From the NCBI GenBank assembly GCA_963847855.1, contig CAWKBM010000002.1:112177-176176 (forward strand): a DNA stretch of 64,000 bases. Direction: 5' to 3'. Shown here in pieces: positions 2,448 through 10,454 of the stretch (position 1 is the first letter of the stretch; every line of letters begins with the position of its first letter). The DNA is from an uncultured Acidimicrobiales bacterium. Its GTDB lineage: Bacteria > Actinomycetota > Acidimicrobiia > Acidimicrobiales > DATKAS01. Both the position numbers and the translations under genes were made by a program. The notes beneath the pieces are model-generated. The model was not told the DNA's origin and did not search any database. It was given only the letters and a program-made list of their open reading frames with translations.

Positions 2448-3227
2448 ATGGGCGGATACGTCGATGTCGCGGGGCACGCCACGTGGGTCGAGCAAACAGG
2501 CGCCGGTGACGAGACGGTCCTCCTGCTGCACGGAGGGCTGTCGAGCTGTGACGACCTGCTCGGCACGGTGGGCCCGACGCTCGCAGAGCACTACCGAGTC
2601 GTCGCGTTCGATCGGAGAGGTCACGGCCGCACAGCAGACACCGACGCGCCGTTCCACTACGCCGACATGGCGGACGAAGTGCTCGGCGTCCTCGAGGTCG
2701 TCGTTGGTGGCCCCGCGCATCTGGTCGGCTTCAGCGACGGCGGAAACATCGCGCTGCTCGTCACGCTCGATCACCGCGAGCTCGTCGGAAAGATCGTGAC
2801 CATCGGGGCGAACTTCCACCACTCGGGCCTCATGGCACTGCCACTCGCGCCCGACTCGCCGGCGGTCGACATGATCGCCGACGCCTACGGACGCCGATCG
2901 CCCGACGGGCGCGAGCACTTCCCGGTGGTGTTCCAGAAGACCGAGGTGATGTTCGCGACCGAACCGACTCTGACGGTCGACGATTTGGGCCGCATCACCA
3001 GCCCGACGCTCGTGATGGCCGGCGACGACGACGCGATCCGCCTCGATCACACGTGCGCGCTGTACGAGGCGCTGCCCGCGGGCGAGCTCGCCATCGTGCC
3101 CGGCGCGTCGCATCTTCTCCCCATCGAGAAGCCGCTCGACACCGCTCGGCTGATCCTCGACTTCTTGCAGAGTGCGGGGCCCCCCGTCACGTTCATGCCG
3201 ATCAGGAGAGGCCCCGCGACTGCCTGA
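2448..3227 (+). CDS. alpha/beta-fold hydrolase
   Basis: 259 aa with an LLLHGG oxyanion region, a GFSDGG nucleophile elbow, and a C-terminal PGASHLLPIEKP region carrying the His. Confidence 0.8.
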   Translation: MGGYVDVAGHATWVEQTGAGDETVLLLHGGLSSCDDLLGTVGPTLAEHYRVVAFDRRGHGRTADTDAPFHYADMADEVLGVLEVVVGGPAHLVGFSDGGNIALLVTLDHRELVGKIVTIGANFHHSGLMALPLAPDSPAVDMIADAYGRRSPDGREHFPVVFQKTEVMFATEPTLTVDDLGRITSPTLVMAGDDDAIRLDHTCALYEALPAGELAIVPGASHLLPIEKPLDTARLILDFLQSAGPPVTFMPIRRGPATA

Positions 3228-3236
3228 GCTCTGGGG

Positions 3237-3911
3237 TCAGGACACCGGGCAGTGGACGTTCGGGTTCCACATGGCGAACGTGCCGCTGGGGTTGAACTTC
3301 CAGATCCACGCGTGGAGTGAGTAGTAGGCCGGCAAGCCGAAGCGGTTGTTCGCGTCGGTGGCCATGAACGTCTGCCCGAACAGCGATGGCGGGCTGGTGT
3401 GGTTGGCATTCCACTCCGCCTGCAGGATGAGGTACTCGAGCGCGACGAGCTTGAAGTGGCCCTGTCCATCGGGCTCGTACACGAGCAGCTCTGGCTTGCT
3501 CGCGTCGATTGTGTCGGTGACGTTCGGGTCGTTGCTCAGGTCGATGAGTGACGGGTTCAAGAAGTGCACGCCCATCGCTCCCACGCTCGGGACGGTCGGG
3601 TCGGCGATGCAGGTGATGTTCTTCATGTCCTGGACCTCGTGGACGTAGCCGCCGACGTTCGGAGCGACATCGAGGCTGTGGAACGGAGCCGTCGCGATCG
3701 CGGCGCGGAAGAGATCGAAGATCGATCCTCGGATGCTCGTGCTTTGCGTCGCTGCCATGCCGTTCATGCCGGGCATGTTGCCCATGCCGTTCCCCATGCC
3801 GCCGCTTCCTCCCGACGTCTGGGCATCGGCAGTCGCCGCGAGTGCGAGCGTTCCCGCGAGCATCGCGACGCACACGAGGGCGCGCACCGAGAGGTGTCTG
3901 TGATTGTTCAT
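3237..3911 (-). CDS. secreted protein of unrecognised family, paralog A, with Met/Gly-rich tract
   Basis: 224 aa. Signal peptide ..AMLAGTLALAATADA, then SGGSGGMGNGMGNMPGMNGM. The C-terminal NRFGLPAYYSLHAWIWKFNPSGTFAMWNPNVHCP is nearly identical to that of the 5619-6194 product. Confidence 0.7.
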   Translation of the reverse strand: MNNHRHLSVRALVCVAMLAGTLALAATADAQTSGGSGGMGNGMGNMPGMNGMAATQSTSIRGSIFDLFRAAIATAPFHSLDVAPNVGGYVHEVQDMKNITCIADPTVPSVGAMGVHFLNPSLIDLSNDPNVTDTIDASKPELLVYEPDGQGHFKLVALEYLILQAEWNANHTSPPSLFGQTFMATDANNRFGLPAYYSLHAWIWKFNPSGTFAMWNPNVHCPVS

Positions 3912-4027
3912 GTGAGTTCCCTTCGTCTCGGGATGTCACGACGAGCCTGCGCTCACCGATCGTCACCGACATCGGGAGTCGCTCCCCATTTCGGTCCGCG
4001 AGCAGGAGGGGTTGGGGTTCGAGTCCT

Positions 4028-4990
4028 TCAGCGCAGCGGAACGCGGCCGCGCAGCAGCTCGCGCTCTGCCTCCACCGAGAGGGCTCGACTTCCGTCGTCA
4101 CCCGGATGAGCCATGGCGCCGCGAATTGTCTCGGTCAGCGGCCGGTGCGTCAGGCCGGCGCTCATCGCGAGCGCGATGTCGACGCGATTCGCCGCCTCCC
4201 AGCCCGTGGCGGCAATCCAGAGCGGCACGCCCATCCATGGGTCGACGCCCGCGGCGAGGAGCTCGATTGACGGCACCCAGAACAGCTCGGATTCGACTTC
4301 CCTGTGGCGGCAGGCTTCGAGCAGCTCCTGGAACCGAGCCTCCGGCCCGGTGACGTTGAAGATGCCAGGCGTCCCGAGCACCGCTGCACGCACGAGCCAC
4401 ACGGCGAGATCGCGCACGTCGATGAACTGCAGGGGATCCTCTGGACTGCCCGGCGCGAGGACAGAGCCGCCCTCCGCCATCCGGCGCGGCCAGGCGACGA
4501 AGCGGTTGGTCCGGTCGTGAGGTCCGACGATGAGCCCCGCCCGGGCGATGGTCGCGCGCGGGCCGAACGTCTCGAGCACGACACGTTCGCAGCCAGCCTT
4601 GCGCGCGCCGTACAGCTCGCTGGCGTCGGCGACGTGGCCGATGTCGAGCAGCCGGGCGGCCTCCCGCTGTGCCTCTGTTGTGCTGTGGTCTGCATACACC
4701 GAGAGGGTCGAGACGAAGACGTACCGGCCAACGCTCTTGGCGAGCGTGTCGACCGAACGCCGGACGATGCCGGGGTCGTACCCGGCGACGTCGACGGCCA
4801 CATCCCACTCGCGACCGGAGAGCGCCGAGAGATCGGAGGTGCGGTCACCCCGCAGCTTTTCGACGTTGGGAAAGAGGTCGGGATTGGTCAACCCGCGGTT
4901 GAACACGGCCACCTGATGTCCGTCCGCGAGCGCCTCAGTGACAAGTGCGCGTCCGACGAACGAGGTTCCTCCGAGTACGAGCATCTGCAC
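4028..4990 (-). CDS. NAD-dependent epimerase/dehydratase family protein
   Basis: 320 aa with the N-terminal Rossmann motif VLGGTSFVGRAL. Confidence 0.85.
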   Translation of the reverse strand: MQMLVLGGTSFVGRALVTEALADGHQVAVFNRGLTNPDLFPNVEKLRGDRTSDLSALSGREWDVAVDVAGYDPGIVRRSVDTLAKSVGRYVFVSTLSVYADHSTTEAQREAARLLDIGHVADASELYGARKAGCERVVLETFGPRATIARAGLIVGPHDRTNRFVAWPRRMAEGGSVLAPGSPEDPLQFIDVRDLAVWLVRAAVLGTPGIFNVTGPEARFQELLEACRHREVESELFWVPSIELLAAGVDPWMGVPLWIAATGWEAANRVDIALAMSAGLTHRPLTETIRGAMAHPGDDGSRALSVEAERELLRGRVPLR

Positions 4991-5009
4991 GGCGGCATGC
5001 TGTCATGCG

Positions 5010-5600
5010 TTAGCGCACGGGCCGTGCGAGCCGGATCTCGCCGCCGATCGTGCCGGCGAAGTAGAGGACGTCTGGGTCGGCGCCGCGGCGAAGCGGTGTC
5101 ACCGTCGTTCCGTCCCCGGTGTAGTAGCCCTCGGCTCCCTCGAAGATCCCGGTCCCGTTCGAGAACTTGCCGATGAAGGTGGAGCGATATTGCCCGTCGT
5201 CGACCACGACCGTCACCGTGAGGTCGGTGTCGATTGTGTCGGGCACTCGCGCAGTGCCGCTGTTGTGCTTGAACGTCGTGCTGGTGATGACGTCGTGGTG
5301 GTGGAGGATGTAAGAGCCGTTCAGCGAGATCGGCTCCTGATCGCTCACGATCGTCTGGAAGGTGCCATTGAGCACGCCGGACGCGAAGTTCTGACCGGTC
5401 TCGATCTCACCGTTCGGGCCCGGAGAGCGTCCAGTCCAGACTCCGTGGATGGGGATCGCCTGCTGGCCGGGAGTGGGATCGGCGTTGACGGGCGTGGCTC
5501 CCGTCCACACGAGCGCGGCGACGCTCACCGAGGCGGCGATGACGAACACGTGAGCGCGCCTCGAACGACGCCCCGCTGACGTTGAGTGAGGGTTGGACAC
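5010..5600 (-). CDS. secreted hypothetical protein
   Basis: 196 aa. The N-terminal basic region RRSRRAHVFVIAASVSVAALVW looks like a signal or anchor. GC3-rich codons. No family recognised. Confidence 0.55.
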   Translation of the reverse strand: MSNPHSTSAGRRSRRAHVFVIAASVSVAALVWTGATPVNADPTPGQQAIPIHGVWTGRSPGPNGEIETGQNFASGVLNGTFQTIVSDQEPISLNGSYILHHHDVITSTTFKHNSGTARVPDTIDTDLTVTVVVDDGQYRSTFIGKFSNGTGIFEGAEGYYTGDGTTVTPLRRGADPDVLYFAGTIGGEIRLARPVR

Positions 5601-5618
5601 GTTTGTCTCCGTTCGGGA

Positions 5619-6194
5619 TCAGGGGCAGGTGACGTTCGGGTTCCACATCGCGAATGTGCCGCTCGGGTTGAACTTCCAGATCCAGGCATGCAGCGAGTAG
5701 TAGGCCGGCAGGCCAAAGCGGTTCGACGCGGGCGTGAACATGAACTCCTGACCGAAGAGCTTCGGGGGACCGGAATGGGTTTGGAGCCATGTCGCCTGGT
5801 CGACGATGTACTCGAGCGCGACGAGCCGGTTGTGGCCCGCGCCGTCGGGCTCGTACACGAGCACTTGGGGCTTGCTGGCTTGGACCGCGTTGTCGAGAGC
5901 GGAGAGGTAGTGGACGCCCATCGCGCCCTGCCCGGGCTCCGCGATGCAGGTGATGCCGTTGATGTCAGCAACTTGGGTCGCGTAGCCACCCGGAGCCGCG
6001 TTCTCGAACCGCAGGAACGGTGCGGTCGCGACAGCAGCCCGGACGAGCTCCACGAACGCTCCCGGGCCACCCCGTGTGTCGTTCATCCTGCTGCCGTCCC
6101 CCATCGTGTGGGCGCCGGCCGACGTGGCCAGAGCGAGGGGGCCGGCAAGAACAGCGAGAGCCGAAGCGAGGAGCAAGAGGTGTCGTCTGAGCAT
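5619..6194 (-). CDS. secreted protein of unrecognised family, paralog B
   Basis: 191 aa with signal peptide MLRRHLLLLASALAVLAGPLALATSAGA. By eye about 60 percent identical to paralog A across the mature region, and the 3' ~100 nt are also similar at the DNA level. Confidence 0.7.
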   Translation of the reverse strand: MLRRHLLLLASALAVLAGPLALATSAGAHTMGDGSRMNDTRGGPGAFVELVRAAVATAPFLRFENAAPGGYATQVADINGITCIAEPGQGAMGVHYLSALDNAVQASKPQVLVYEPDGAGHNRLVALEYIVDQATWLQTHSGPPKLFGQEFMFTPASNRFGLPAYYSLHAWIWKFNPSGTFAMWNPNVTCP

Positions 6195-6292
6195 GCCTTG
6201 GAGAGTGCGACATCGGCCTCACGGACCGCTCACCGGCGCTCACGAACCGCTCATGGGACCCCGCAAACCGCTCCTCGGTAGATTGGCGCGCA

Positions 6293-8292
6293 GTGGTCTG
6301 CTCGTTCGGGATCCTCGGACCCGTCCTCCTGGAGATCGACGGCGTCGACATCACGCCCTCCGCCCCGAAGGAGCGCGCACTCCTCGCGATGCTCGTCATC
6401 CATCACGCCCGCGGAGTCGGGGTCGACCAGCTCGTCGAGGAGCTCTGGCCCAAGCTCGACGCTGATCGGGCGCGTCGGGCGCTGCAGGTCCGAGCAGCGG
6501 CGGTGCGCAAACGGCTGAAGGACGCACACGGCGCCCGAAGCCAGTCCCGCGGCGGTGACCCATGGGCGGCCGCCGCGTCGCTCACGGAGGCGATCGGGCT
6601 CTGGGCGCGGCCCCGCGCTGGCCGATGTCCGAGGCGGTGTGAGCGTCGACGCGGAGGCCGCGCGACTCGACGAGGCTCGAATGGACGCGATCGAGGACCG
6701 GATCGACGCGGAGATGGCATGCGGCCGACACCGCGAGCTGCTCCCCGAGCTCGATCGGCTCGTGGCCGTCGCTCCTCTGCCGCGAGCGGCTCTGGGCCCA
6801 ACGCGTGCTCGCGCTGTACCGCGACGGACGACAGACCGAAGCGCTGCAGGCCTGCACCTCGATTCGCCGGCGACTTGCCGACGAATGGGGCGTGGAGCCG
6901 GGCCCGGCGCTCCGCACGCTCGAGACAGCCGTCCTCGAGCAACGGCCTGAGCTCGACGCCAGGGCGGTCGCGAGCGTGTCGCTGCCGGCCCACCGATCCT
7001 CGGACGCAGCCATGCCGAGGGTGCACTACGCGAAGGCGAAGGACGGCGTCAGCCTCGCCTATCAGGTGACCGGCGACGGACCGACGGATCTGATCATCAT
7101 TCCCGGCTACACGTCCCATCTCGAGACCTGGTGGGAGGCGTGGTCGGGTCGGCTCGTTCGGCAGCTCGCGTCGTTCTCGCGACTGATCCTCTTCGACAAG
7201 CGCGGGACGGGCTTGTCGGATCGCCCAGAGCACGTCGACCTCGACGACTGGGTGGAGGACGTCGCGGTGGTGCTCGACGCTGTCGGGTCGGAGCGTGCGG
7301 CTGTCCTCGGCGTGTCCGCAGGCTCGCCCATAGCGATCCTCTTCGCCGCCACCTATCCGGAGCGAACCCGGGCACTCGTCCTGTACGGCGGATATCCGCG
7401 GGTTCTCTGGGACAAGGACTACCTCTTCGGCGTCGCCGCGGAAGAGCTGCGCGAGGGAATCGAGTCCCTGGAAGCCGGGTGGGGGTCGCCCTCTGCGCTC
7501 AAGTATTGGTGTCCGAGCGCTCGCGACGACCCGGTTGCGCGAGAGCAGTTCGGTCGCTATCAGCGGATCTCCGCGAGTCCGGCCTCAGCGACCGCGTACC
7601 TCCGGCTTGTGACGAGCATCGACGTGCGACATGCGCTCCCAACGGTGAGCGCGCCGACGCTCGTGCTGCACGCGGCTCGGGACGTGCGTACGCCACTCGA
7701 GTGCTCGAGGTTCATGGCCGAGCGCATACCCGACGCCACCCTCGTCGAGCTCGACAGCGCGGACCACCTGATCTGGTTCTCAGACGCGCTCGATGCGATG
7801 ACCACGCACATCCAGGACTTCCTGACGGGCGCGCACCCAGAGCGCGAGGTCAACCGGGTGCTCGCGACAGTCCTCGCCGTGATGCTCGCCGATGGATCTC
7901 AGATCGACCCTCGACCTGCGTGCGAGCTCATCAAACGGTTCCGCGGAAGAGTCCTGCGCACAAGCCCGCACGCCTTCGTGGGTTCGTTCGACGGGCCCGG
8001 TCAGGCGATCCGATGCGCGGTCGCGATCGTCCAGGACCTGGCATCGAAGGGCGTCGGGGCTCGCGCGGGTCTCCACGGTGGCGAGTGCTACGCCACCGAT
8101 GGTGAAGTCGGCGGCCTCGCCGTCGAGATCGCCGAGCACGTGTGCGCTCTCGCTCGTCCGGCGGAGGTGTTCGTCTCGCAGACGGTTCGTGACCTCGTCT
8201 ACGGGAGCGCGATCACGTTCAGCGACTGCCGGGGAGATCATGTGGAGGGTGTGCCGCGCGACTGGCGGGTCTTCGCCGTGACCCAGGCGTGA
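6293..8292 (+). CDS. SARP/BTAD-type regulator fused to alpha/beta hydrolase and a degenerate class III cyclase-like domain; two +1 frame breaks (~6560, ~6772)
   Basis: Frame 2: winged-helix-like ILGPVLLEIDGVDITPSAPKERALLAMLVIH. Frame 0: BTAD segment ALADVRGGVSVDAEAARLDEARMDAIEDRIDAEMACGRHRELLPELDRLVA. Frame 1: RERLWAQRVLALYRDGRQTEALQ, then a hydrolase (LIIIPGY..GVSAGS) and a C-terminal cyclase-homology-like region. Confidence 0.7.
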
Positions 8293-8297
8293 GACGC

Positions 8298-8333
8298 GAC
8301 GAAGCCCGGGCCCGTGAGGGCCCGGGCTTCGTC
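8298..8333. terminator. perfect 16-bp GC-rich hairpin between convergent genes (possible bidirectional terminator)
   Basis: GACGAAGCCCGGGCCC-GTGA-GGGCCCGGGCTTCGTC lies 6 nt after the stop at 8292 and 15 nt from the stop of the minus-strand gene at 8348. No U-tract. Confidence 0.55.
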
Positions 8334-8347
8334 AACGTGATGGGGTG

Positions 8348-9007
8348 CTAGCTCCGCGAACGCAGCAGGCGAGTGCCACCCACGAGGAGGGCACCGAGGG
8401 CGATCGCGGCGATCGCCACGAACAGCGGGGCCTGGGTCGAGCTACCGGTCGCGGGGAGCGTGCCGGCCGCAGTCGTCGTCGGTGCGACGGTCGTCGTTGC
8501 CTCGGTGGGAGGCGGTGCGACGGTCGTCGTCTCGGCGACTGTGGTCGTCGCCGCCACCGTGGTGGTTGTTGCCTGACCGACGGTCACGCTTGCCTGTGCC
8601 TTCGAAGCGAGCGTTCCGCCCGGAACTCCGGCGTTGGCGTTGAAGATGACCGTGCCACTGCTGACCGGGACCTCGATCACGAGCGTCTGCGGTGAGACGT
8701 TGGGAGCCGGCGTCGACCAGCTGCAGGTGACGCTGGTGCTCGCGGTCACGCAGGACGACAGCCCTGCCGTGAACGACACCAGCGCGGGTGCGCCCCCGCC
8801 GGCGTACGTGATGCTCACCGACGCCGCGGTGCTCGGTTGCGGAGACGTGAAGTTCGCCGTGACGACCACGTTCGTGCCCGGTGCCGGTGCTGAGGGCGCG
8901 GCTGTGATCGTCGCTGTGATGTCGGCGGGAGTCTGAGCGCTCACTGGAGCACTCAGAAGGACAAGGGCGGCGGCCAAAACACCGAACGCCGAGAACACCT
9001 TCTTCAT
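8348..9007 (-). CDS. LPXTG-anchored cell-surface protein
   Basis: Signal peptide MKKVFSAFGVLAAALVLLSAPVSA, a Thr/Ala-rich stalk, and a C-terminal LPATG followed by a hydrophobic stretch and RLLRSRS. ATG 9007 is preceded by GAGAGG; a GTG at 9016 is an alternative start. Confidence 0.8.
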   Translation of the reverse strand: MKKVFSAFGVLAAALVLLSAPVSAQTPADITATITAAPSAPAPGTNVVVTANFTSPQPSTAASVSITYAGGGAPALVSFTAGLSSCVTASTSVTCSWSTPAPNVSPQTLVIEVPVSSGTVIFNANAGVPGGTLASKAQASVTVGQATTTTVAATTTVAETTTVAPPPTEATTTVAPTTTAAGTLPATGSSTQAPLFVAIAAIALGALLVGGTRLLRSRS

Positions 9008-9144
9008 GTGCAACACCTCTCGGTTGGGTTACCTCGTGTTCATCTTTCCCTGCTTGCGCCATGTGCGCCACTCGAAGCAGCCACACACGTCGATCAGCAC
9101 TACCCAGAATCCGGGAAGTTCAGGCACACCCGAGATCTTCCTGG

Positions 9145-9429
9145 TCAGGGAGCAGGTCGGGACAGTACCCGGAACCCGGCCCAGTCGCCATGATGCGGGC
9201 TCTCCGTGACCTCGACCGTCGTCACGGTGGCGCGGGGCGGCCCGACCCGCATCCACGCGATGAGCGCATCGACGGCGTCGGGGGTTCCGTCGATGTCGGC
9301 CTCGACGGATCCGTCACTTCGGTTCGCGACCCAGCCTCGGACATCGAGCATCTCCGCCTGGTTGCGACAGCTTTCGCGGAACCACACGCCCTGGACTCGT
9401 CCTGATACGACGACGCGGCGATGCGTCAC
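9145..9429 (-). CDS. acyP: acylphosphatase
   Basis: 94 aa with the VSGRVQGVWFRESCRNQA and GWVANRSDGSVE motifs. Confidence 0.85.
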   Translation of the reverse strand: MTHRRVVVSGRVQGVWFRESCRNQAEMLDVRGWVANRSDGSVEADIDGTPDAVDALIAWMRVGPPRATVTTVEVTESPHHGDWAGFRVLSRPAP

Positions 9430-9438
9430 TGCCGAAGG

Positions 9439-10454
9439 TCAGCCGCGCCAGAGCTGCAGAGGCGTGCGATCGCGCGGCCCCGTGAACGGCACCGCGACCT
9501 CGGAGCCAGCCGCTGCAGCGGATGCGTACGCGGCACAGACGACGTCGAGCACGGCACGCCCGAAGCGCGCGTCCATCAGCGGAGGCGTGGCACCAGCGAA
9601 CGCCGCGAGGAAGGCCTCGAGCTGGCCGACGTAGCCGTACTGCTCGAGCTGGGGGATCGGTGCCGTGACGGTTGGGAGCGTGAGCACGTCACCGTTGCGC
9701 TCGAGGAGTGGCGTCGGCAACAGCTCAGCTCGCACGACCCCCGTCGCGCTCGCCGCCTGCGCGCTCCACTCGGGCACCTCGCCGCCGCGCCAGCTCGACA
9801 CGACAGTCGCGTTGAAGCCGTGCTCGAACGTAAGGGTCACCACTGCGTGCTCGTCCGTGGGATGGTCGTCCGCTCCTTCGAGCAACGCGGACACCGACAC
9901 CACGTGTGATCGTGCTGCGAGCATCGCGATCGCGACCGGGTGCACACCGAGATCGAAGAGCGCGCCGCCACCCCAGTCTTCGGTGAGGAATTCTCCCAGG
10001 TAGGGCGGCTCTGCACCGTACGTACCTCGAGATGCTGGAGGTCTCCGAGCTGCTCGACCTCGGAGACGAACTGCTGCACGATCGGCGCGTACGCGAGGTT
10101 CTCTGCGTACCCGATGCGAGCGCCGGCTTGCTCCGCGACAACCAGTGCATCGGCGGCGGCGAGCGTCGTGCACAACGGCTTCTCGATCACGACCGAGGCG
10201 CCGCGGCCGATGGCGTGCAGCGCGTGGTCGGCATGGCACTGAGGCGCGCTGCACACGACGACGAGCTCCGCGTCGCCGGGCAGCTCGTCGTAGCGGCAGG
10301 CGATCGCGCCCATGCGGGTCGCCATCTCCTTTGCCTTCTCGTGGTGCCGTGATGCGACGCGGCTGATCGGAAGGCCGAGCTGCTTCGAGGCGAGACCGTG
10401 CACGGCTGCGATCCAGCCCGCGCCGGCGAACGCGACGCGAGGGGCGTCGTTCAC
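9439..10454 (-). CDS. Gfo/Idh/MocA-family oxidoreductase; one frame break near 10020
   Basis: The N-terminal Rossmann half (RVAFAGAGWIAAVH..EKPLCTT) is in the 9837-10454 ORF. The C-terminal half (GGGALFDLGVHPVAIAML..) is in the 9439-10254 ORF. Confidence 0.75.

Follow-up and report, generated by a model that had tools for sequence, protein, structure and literature searches.

An undescribed family of exported proteins with a near-invariant His-Glu-His set: candidate extracytoplasmic metalloproteins encoded beside SCO4226-like and regulatory genes

Results

Two exported paralogues in an Acidimicrobiales locus

The stretch of DNA analysed here, called the window below, comprises 64,000 nucleotides of contig CAWKBM010000002.1 (positions 112,177 to 176,176) from an uncultured Acidimicrobiales bacterium, and it encodes on its minus strand two paralogues, A and B. 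They are members of a large family, so far undescribed, whose products are exported by the Sec route and have a mature domain of about 145 residues. Paralogue A (224 residues, 3237..3911) and paralogue B (191 residues, 5619..6194) score 243 and 246 bits, respectively, against the hidden Markov model (HMM) of the family. Both N-termini, judged by direct reading of the sequence, open with positive charge and continue through a hydrophobic stretch to an AxA site, as do those of relatives, so that the predicted signal peptides span residues 1-30 of A (...LALAATADA, followed by QT) and residues 1-28 of B (...LATSAGA, followed by HT); the ATG of A is preceded by the Shine-Dalgarno-like GAAGGGA. An earlier note on this DNA, made from the letters and their reading frames, had described the two products as secreted paralogues of about 60 percent identity by eye, a fair estimate given the 53% identity found by BLASTP over 204 columns (E 2e-68) and the 62% found by global alignment across 190 aligned residues. 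The near-identical C-termini and the resemblance of the 3' ends at the DNA level that it reported are equally real: over aligned codons 198-212 of A the nucleotide identity is 87%, against 69% for the whole gene, and the proteins are 100% identical, with the same codon at just 60% of those residues. Recent gene conversion is ruled out by the persistence of these synonymous differences, and since identical residues often differ in codon, the similarity is attributed to purifying selection at the protein level.

Downstream of the signal peptide, A carries the Gly/Met-rich tract GGSGGMGNGMGNMPGMNGM (residues 34-52, 3756..3812) and B the His/Met tail HTMGDGSRMND (residues 29-39, 6078..6110), as the earlier note had observed. 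They precede a conserved alpha+beta core domain that covers residues 60-222 of A (3246..3734), as delimited by alignment to B and to the family, and residues 44-191 of B (5622..6065), as delimited by secondary structure, model confidence and invariant columns. The key residues mapped in this domain are C101, H116, E159, H200 and C221 in A and C83, H95, E128, H169 and C190 in B. The first and last of each series are the two cysteines already singled out by eye, in ITCIA[DE]P and at the C-terminus, and both are kept family-wide.

A widespread family without recognised relatives

The first reading had left the two proteins in an unrecognised family, and every comparison that we made agrees with this. 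Pfam and NCBIfam scans of A and B gave zero matches at E<=1, PDB sequences, queried with B by itself and with profiles of 56 and of 82 sequences, returned chance matches only (E above 0.4), and a Foldseek comparison of the AlphaFold model with PDB and BFVD gave no significant match. A word-indexed search recovered 970 homologues, every one of them unnamed or labelled 'hypothetical protein', the label that annotated plasmid records also give to the gene. Literature searches for SCO4226, DUF4242, PF14026 and TTHB210 turned up neither the family nor the gene pairing presented below.

The family is large. A HMMER profile search covering 1.84 billion cluster representatives found 4147 clusters (50% identity) at E<=1e-3 and 2438 at E<=1e-10, and at least 587 loci with a relative were found when one genome per GTDB species was considered. 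These carriers belong to the Acidimicrobiia, the Thermoleophilia (Gaiellaceae), other Actinomycetota and the Chloroflexota, and include the cultured actinomycetotal genera Cellulomonas, Kribbella, Actinoplanes, Paractinoplanes and Marmoricola. Plasmid sequences searched by tblastn contributed further carriers, namely Gemmatirosa, Neorhizobium, Ensifer, Limimaricola and the haloarchaea Haloarcula and Halorarius, which extends the range of the family to Actinomycetota, Chloroflexota, Gemmatimonadota, Alphaproteobacteria and haloarchaea. Distant members include tandem domain duplications and lipoprotein forms with a lipobox; in two independent clusters (P0156 and P0162) collagen repeats are followed by two copies of the domain and an Amidohydro_2 domain, and among the distant members P0156, P0162, P0245, P0128, P0185, P0207 and P0226 there is a fusion behind an ICMT/PEMT-like membrane domain.

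A cysteine pair and a His-Glu-His set in a confidently modelled domain

The AlphaFold model of B, built from 56 sequences, has a predicted local distance difference test (pLDDT) score of 92-98 for residues 45-190 and of below 50 for residues 24-38, so that the tail appears disordered or of low confidence. The predicted fold is alpha+beta: two N-terminal helices precede a sheet of six beta strands, and a long C-terminal coil runs to C190. The two cysteines lie in a ..CI.. motif of the first strand and in a C-terminal WNPxVxC motif, and they are jointly present in 329 of 330 sequences; in the tandem proteins P0207 and P0226, the N-terminal domain has lost both of them and keeps His-Glu-His.

This second set of residues consists of a His in GAMGxH, a Glu or Asp in LVAxEY and a His in LHxW. 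In B numbering, His95-Glu/Asp128-His169 is found in 338 of 364 unique domain sequences, with a conservative replacement of Glu128 by Asp in 12 cases, and the three residues sit on three different strands of the model. The two His are lost jointly in five cases (R-E-R twice, Q-E-Q, Q-E-R and Y-Q-N) versus one single loss. Because of this correlated loss and of the export of the protein, we read the cysteine pair as probably a disulfide, C83-C190 in B, pinning the C-terminal coil to the first strand, and the His-Glu-His triad as a putative functional site. A mean-field direct coupling analysis of triad contacts (323 sequences) was dominated by gap artefacts and discarded.

Tails rich in His and Met

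Tails, defined as the segment from signal peptide to domain or the segment after the last Cys, were tallied in the 246 members with scorable ends. At least three His or Met occur in one tail in 51 of them, at the N- or the C-terminal end and never at both. The His content of the tails is 6.0-6.2% versus a background of 2.5% in neighbouring proteins (2.4-2.5-fold), and Met is enriched 1.3-1.9-fold. His-rich tails, including pure His/Asp ones, are commoner than Met-rich tails, the variety being illustrated by HGGHGGHGGHH, DHRDHRDHRDH.., MEDMPGMGD and DMTDMHDMHDM and, at the extreme, by the N-terminal region of P0202 with its exceptional richness in His, Asp, Arg and Lys.

In A, the Met residues form three consecutive MxxM spacings (M43-x2-M46-x2-M49-x2-M52), while B has just two Met and one His in its tail, this His29 being the predicted mature N-terminal residue. 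The same feature recurs in B-type relatives, which start AHTMG.., AHDMTDMHDM.. or AHTHGASTHG.. and are predicted to begin with His after maturation. A-type orthologues (P0014, P0016-18 and P0020-22) bear a Gly/Met tract with 1 to 6 Met, and L004 bears one too. The constancy of the tract in close homologues, a point raised by the earlier note, thus applies to its kind but not to its length. P0003 appears to be a mosaic: its N-terminal tail resembles B, and an insertion (NPGLIDLNDDPTVNDTIDASKPE) resembles A. Tails are found in 5 of 20 loci without the PF14026 partner described below versus 6 of 61 loci with it, a trend only (Fisher p = 0.13). The recurrence of His-rich tails at interchangeable positions in the protein would argue for a metal-related role over that of a mere linker, with no preference for copper.

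A SCO4226-like partner and a large regulator

Neighbours of family genes were clustered over 80 loci (L001-L080), and the partner was searched for by running partner HMMs against all open reading frames around 81 family genes. Two kinds of neighbour dominate. The first, present in 51 of the 80 loci, is an AAA_16-TPR-GerE (LuxR) regulator of about 870 residues or a related cyclase-type protein; the second is a protein of about 90 residues of the PF14026 'SCO4226-like' family (formerly DUF4242). The PF14026 gene lies immediately upstream of the family gene and on the same strand in 57 of the 81 cases, with a gap of -4 to 36 nucleotides in the eight loci checked by hand, and usually with the AAA-TPR-LuxR regulator on its other side. 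Neorhizobium galegae likewise has the pair side by side, with the order reversed, and 21 of the 81 relatives have no PF14026 partner. Among 148 further neighbours, no other Pfam family recurs, with at most four occurrences each. The pairing with PF14026 and a large regulator seems not to have been described so far and is, beside the definition of the family, the main new result of this work.

Genetic surroundings of A and B in the window

The gene order and the strand reported by the earlier note are as described. Read along the minus strand, B is followed after 18 nucleotides by a third secreted protein of 196 residues (5010..5600), after a further 19 nucleotides by a cytoplasmic NAD-dependent epimerase/dehydratase (4028..4990; PF01370, E 1.2e-14) and, after 116 nucleotides, by A, and the row diverges from a Trans_reg_C and BTAD gene that starts at 6293. 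This context is nevertheless lineage-specific: the epimerase does not recur beside family genes elsewhere, where the SCO4226-like gene and the LuxR-type regulator form the usual surroundings, and partner HMMs found no PF14026 gene among the open reading frames of the window. Between positions 2500 and 7000 there is no match to Rfam families, riboswitches included, and no sigma-70 promoter or intrinsic terminator consensus.

The 196-residue protein is an orphan without Pfam or NCBIfam match, predicted to be all-beta and marked by a GTGxFxGAxG motif, with only 7 homologues in 5.8 billion proteins; its AlphaFold model, made from 7 sequences, was unreliable (pLDDT 41) and was not used. A homologue (7001-7552) lies near a Trans_reg_C-BTAD-hydrolase gene in the related locus L087, and the protein may be in the same regulon as the family genes.

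The divergent regulator (6293..8292, plus strand) combines, according to domain scans, an OmpR-type winged helix, a BTAD domain of the Streptomyces antibiotic regulatory protein (SARP) type, an alpha/beta hydrolase and a LipJ-like cyclase (NF058673, 1.2e-84). These parts are spread over three frames (starting at 6293, 6555-6950 and 6805-8292) with switches near 6600 and near 6790: Trans_reg_C lies in frame 2, BTAD positions 37-94 in frame 0, and BTAD positions 103-146 with Abhydrolase_1 in frame 1. The linker between the winged helix-turn-helix and BTAD looks shortened. The broken gene is either a pseudogene or the product of an assembly indel error. A GFO_IDH_MocA oxidoreductase gene (9439-10454, minus strand) is likewise split into the overlapping frames 9837-10454 and 9439-10254. 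Because this is a second frame break within 4 kb, and because the L081 orthologue of this gene is intact (338 residues), assembly indel errors are likely.

Comparison with L081 and L086 shows that the A/B region (2448-10454) is a variable island between conserved flanks, with GFO_IDH, an acylphosphatase and a surface protein of about 220 residues on one side and an alpha/beta hydrolase on the other. In L081 the island holds only the A orthologue, a Lipoprotein_15 gene and a remnant of the epimerase; in L086 the only family gene is of the B type; it diverges from a BTAD-hydrolase(-cyclase) regulator and is followed by a distant relative of the 196-residue protein (7659-8117). The surface protein of the window (8348-9016, minus strand) has 222 residues, is secreted and Thr/Ala-rich, and ends in LPATG, a hydrophobic stretch and RSRS, an ending reminiscent of sortase-anchored proteins; Pfam offers no match, and the gene stands beside the acylphosphatase gene in L081 and L086 as well. 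Further upstream on the plus strand, a reading frame of 126 residues without Pfam match (197-577) precedes a TylF-type O-methyltransferase (586-1443) and a family 8 glycosyltransferase (1440-2369), the last two overlapping by 4 nucleotides; together (197-2369) they look like a small sugar-modification cassette unrelated to the finding reported here.

Discussion

In the model that we favour, and whose chances we put at about even, the A/B family consists of exported, disulfide-stabilised metalloproteins that have a His-Glu-His site and, in some of the lineages (both copies of the window among them), metal-capturing tails. His95, Glu128 and His169 of B would together bind a single metal ion in a mononuclear site on the outer side of the cytoplasmic membrane, and the disordered tails rich in His, Met and Asp would act as arms that capture the metal and feed or buffer the triad site, the MxxM tract of A and the B tail with its mature N-terminal His being two examples of such arms. 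His/Met-rich extensions capture metal in other exported metalloproteins. In most lineages the family gene is the second cistron of a two-gene operon with the cytoplasmic SCO4226-like protein, the AAA-TPR-LuxR regulator being adjacent and upstream of this operon; in the lineage of the window, the PF14026 partner is missing and the B-type gene is paired instead with the SARP-hydrolase-cyclase regulator. The family protein would be expressed under a regulator of the STAND (signal transduction ATPase with numerous domains)-LuxR type or of the SARP-cyclase type. The family, its motifs, its export signal, the joint loss of residues, the tails and the gene neighbourhood are observations, whereas metal binding is an inference, and the protein could be a chaperone or a buffer or else an enzyme. 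The suggestion of the earlier note that these are extracytoplasmic metal-binding proteins keeps its plausibility, with the His-enriched tails and the near-invariant triad as family-wide support; a copper-specific reading is not supported.

Several observations weigh against this model. Neither HMA or P1B-ATPase motifs nor other Met-rich proteins were found in the window by motif scan, and, of the 121 Pfam families matched by the neighbours, the 25 commonest include no metal transporter, metallochaperone, multicopper oxidase or metal sensor. To our knowledge, STAND-LuxR and SARP-hydrolase-cyclase regulators are not known as metal sensors. Tails are absent from about 80% of the members, and the Met tract varies in length among close A orthologues. 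The His/Glu/His set can, moreover, also be read as a metal-free catalytic site. Finally, SCO4226 binds four Ni2+ per dimer in vitro with a dissociation constant of 10 uM, at surface or crystal-contact sites (PMC4186839), and because this binding is weak and located at such sites, the 'nickel' label of the partner carries little weight. Some SCO4226 homologues are labelled 'guanylate cyclase' by NCBI (PMC4186839), a hint that the PF14026 domain works with signalling proteins of the cyclase or STAND type rather than in nickel handling. SCO4226 of S. coelicolor is located in the phoU/phoRP region (PMC4991794).

The catalytic reading of the triad leads to an alternative that we consider unlikely, namely that the family is composed of secreted enzymes, for instance hydrolases whose substrate would be the wall, nucleic acid or a small molecule, in which His-Glu-His would be catalytic, metal-free or with a metal cofactor, and for which the SCO4226-like partner would be an inhibitor, an immunity protein or a chaperone. 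Barnase and barstar are the model for such a pair of enzyme and intracellular inhibitor, and the encoding of a small cytoplasmic protein within -4 to 36 nucleotides of an exported one, in either order across phyla, would fit it. The polar set H95, E128, R159 and H169, together with Y129, Y166 and W171, resembles an active site whose His...Glu...Arg...His order recalls ribonuclease (RNase) T1, which we take to be a lead only, and the Amidohydro_2 fusions of P0156 and P0162 point in the same direction. However, Foldseek shows no RNase, peptidase or other enzyme fold, R159 is not kept in distant members, and His/Met-rich tails would be unexpected on a metal-free enzyme. Furthermore, since both copies of the window and the 21 of 81 relatives mentioned above are without the partner, the PF14026 protein is not an obligatory antidote. 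Two particular enzymes find no support: a LAS/M23 zinc peptidase, as there is no conserved HxH or HxxxD and the Foldseek probability for LytM/M23 is 0.06 or lower, and a microbial RNase (T1/barnase/Sa), as no RNase appears among the 50 PDB matches listed by Foldseek and Arg159 is lost in distant members, as stated.

A copper-specific reading, prompted by the remark of the earlier note on Met-rich tracts, is a sub-case of the metalloprotein model: the proteins would sequester Cu(I)/Cu(II) in the cell envelope or act there as its chaperones. MxxM repeats bind Cu(I) in Ctr1, CopA and PcoA, and A bears such repeats, many tails mix Met with His (as in MEDMPGMGD and DMTDMHDMHDM) and maturation of the B-type proteins is predicted to leave a His at the N-terminus, all of which would suit copper. 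We nevertheless hold this specificity to be improbable. No copper or metal-resistance gene recurs beside the homologues, whether among the most frequent families of the 148 neighbours or, by motif scan, in the window, and no Pfam copper family matches the domain. Pure His/Asp tails outnumber Met tails, His-rich tails are not metal-specific, the Met count of the A orthologues drops to as low as 1, and the sole partner with experimental data binds nickel. In the case of CopC, PCuAC, YcnI/DUF1775, CusF, the cupredoxins and DUF1541/CopL, A and B show no Pfam or NCBIfam match (E<=1), no shared fold and no linkage to copper genes.

Lower still do we rate a non-metal protein of the envelope or of signalling, ligand-binding or structural, produced as the output of the STAND-LuxR or SARP-cyclase regulator and carrying tails that would be functionless low-complexity linkers. 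Its conserved neighbours are indeed solely signalling and regulatory proteins, most members do without tails, whose lengths vary, and the family also includes lipoproteins as well as fusions with collagen-like repeats or membrane domains. Such a protein would have to account for a 2.4-fold enrichment of His in both kinds of tail, for the mutual exclusion of N- and C-terminal tails, and for a strictly conserved, buried-looking His/Glu/His set whose His are lost jointly, which is unusual for a purely structural protein. An anti-phage defence function, suggested by the STAND-type neighbour, finds no support either, as a PADLOC scan gave no match for A, B, the 196-residue protein or the PF14026 partner and matched the LuxR regulator in its helix-turn-helix region only.

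Compared with known systems, the proteins resemble the Met-rich regions of CopA, PcoA and CueO, the 'Mets' motifs of Ctr1 and the His-rich N-termini of some periplasmic Cu,Zn superoxide dismutases in having an extracytoplasmic, disordered His/Met tract attached to a folded domain with conserved His and carboxylate residues. With the Met-motif Cu(I) tracts, A shares the clustered MxxM in an exported segment, and the model shows disorder for the corresponding segment of B. The A/B core differs from all these metalloproteins in that it has no sequence or fold relationship with them and no linkage to a copper or zinc system, and its metal binding is predicted. The SCO4226-like protein is related to the family by genetic coupling across phyla, and is itself a distinct protein of 82-90 residues, cytoplasmic, dimeric and ferredoxin-like, with low affinity for nickel. 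The best Foldseek match of B is TTHB210 of Thermus thermophilus (PDB 3vg8), a small and itself uncharacterised alpha+beta protein over which about 100 residues are aligned with a template modelling (TM) score of 0.32-0.44 (target-normalised); with E values of 0.18-0.63, a probability of 0.38 or lower, a root-mean-square deviation of 5.5-7.3 A, 15-17% identity and no sequence-profile match, this similarity is not significant. As for the divergent gene of the window, it shares the Trans_reg_C, BTAD, alpha/beta hydrolase and LipJ-like cyclase regions of the SARP/LipJ-type proteins and departs from the typical context of the family in that its frame is broken twice and that it replaces the AAA-TPR-LuxR regulator.

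In conclusion, the family is now defined by a signal peptide, a Cys pair, a His-Glu-His triad and optional His/Met tails. With more than 4000 clusters, it has neither a name, nor a Pfam or NCBIfam model, nor a structural relative; soil Actinomycetota and Chloroflexota commonly carry it, and its range extends to rhizobia and haloarchaea. Because this definition, the partner and the regulator are now given, its function can be tested in carriers available in culture, among them Cellulomonas, Kribbella, Actinoplanes, Marmoricola and Neorhizobium galegae, and the poorly understood SCO4226/DUF4242 family would gain a functional context. Could the domain be a new fold and a new class of extracytoplasmic metalloprotein and, with the SCO4226-like protein and the STAND-LuxR or SARP-cyclase regulator, constitute an undescribed three-gene module present in at least five phyla, in soil bacteria and haloarchaea? 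We raise this possibility tentatively, with more doubt than confidence; such a module could be a system of metal homeostasis or of signalling. If metal binding is not confirmed, the family would still represent a sizeable 'dark' secretome tied to STAND- and cyclase-type regulators; if it is confirmed, these proteins would bring to light a new extracytoplasmic metal-handling domain.

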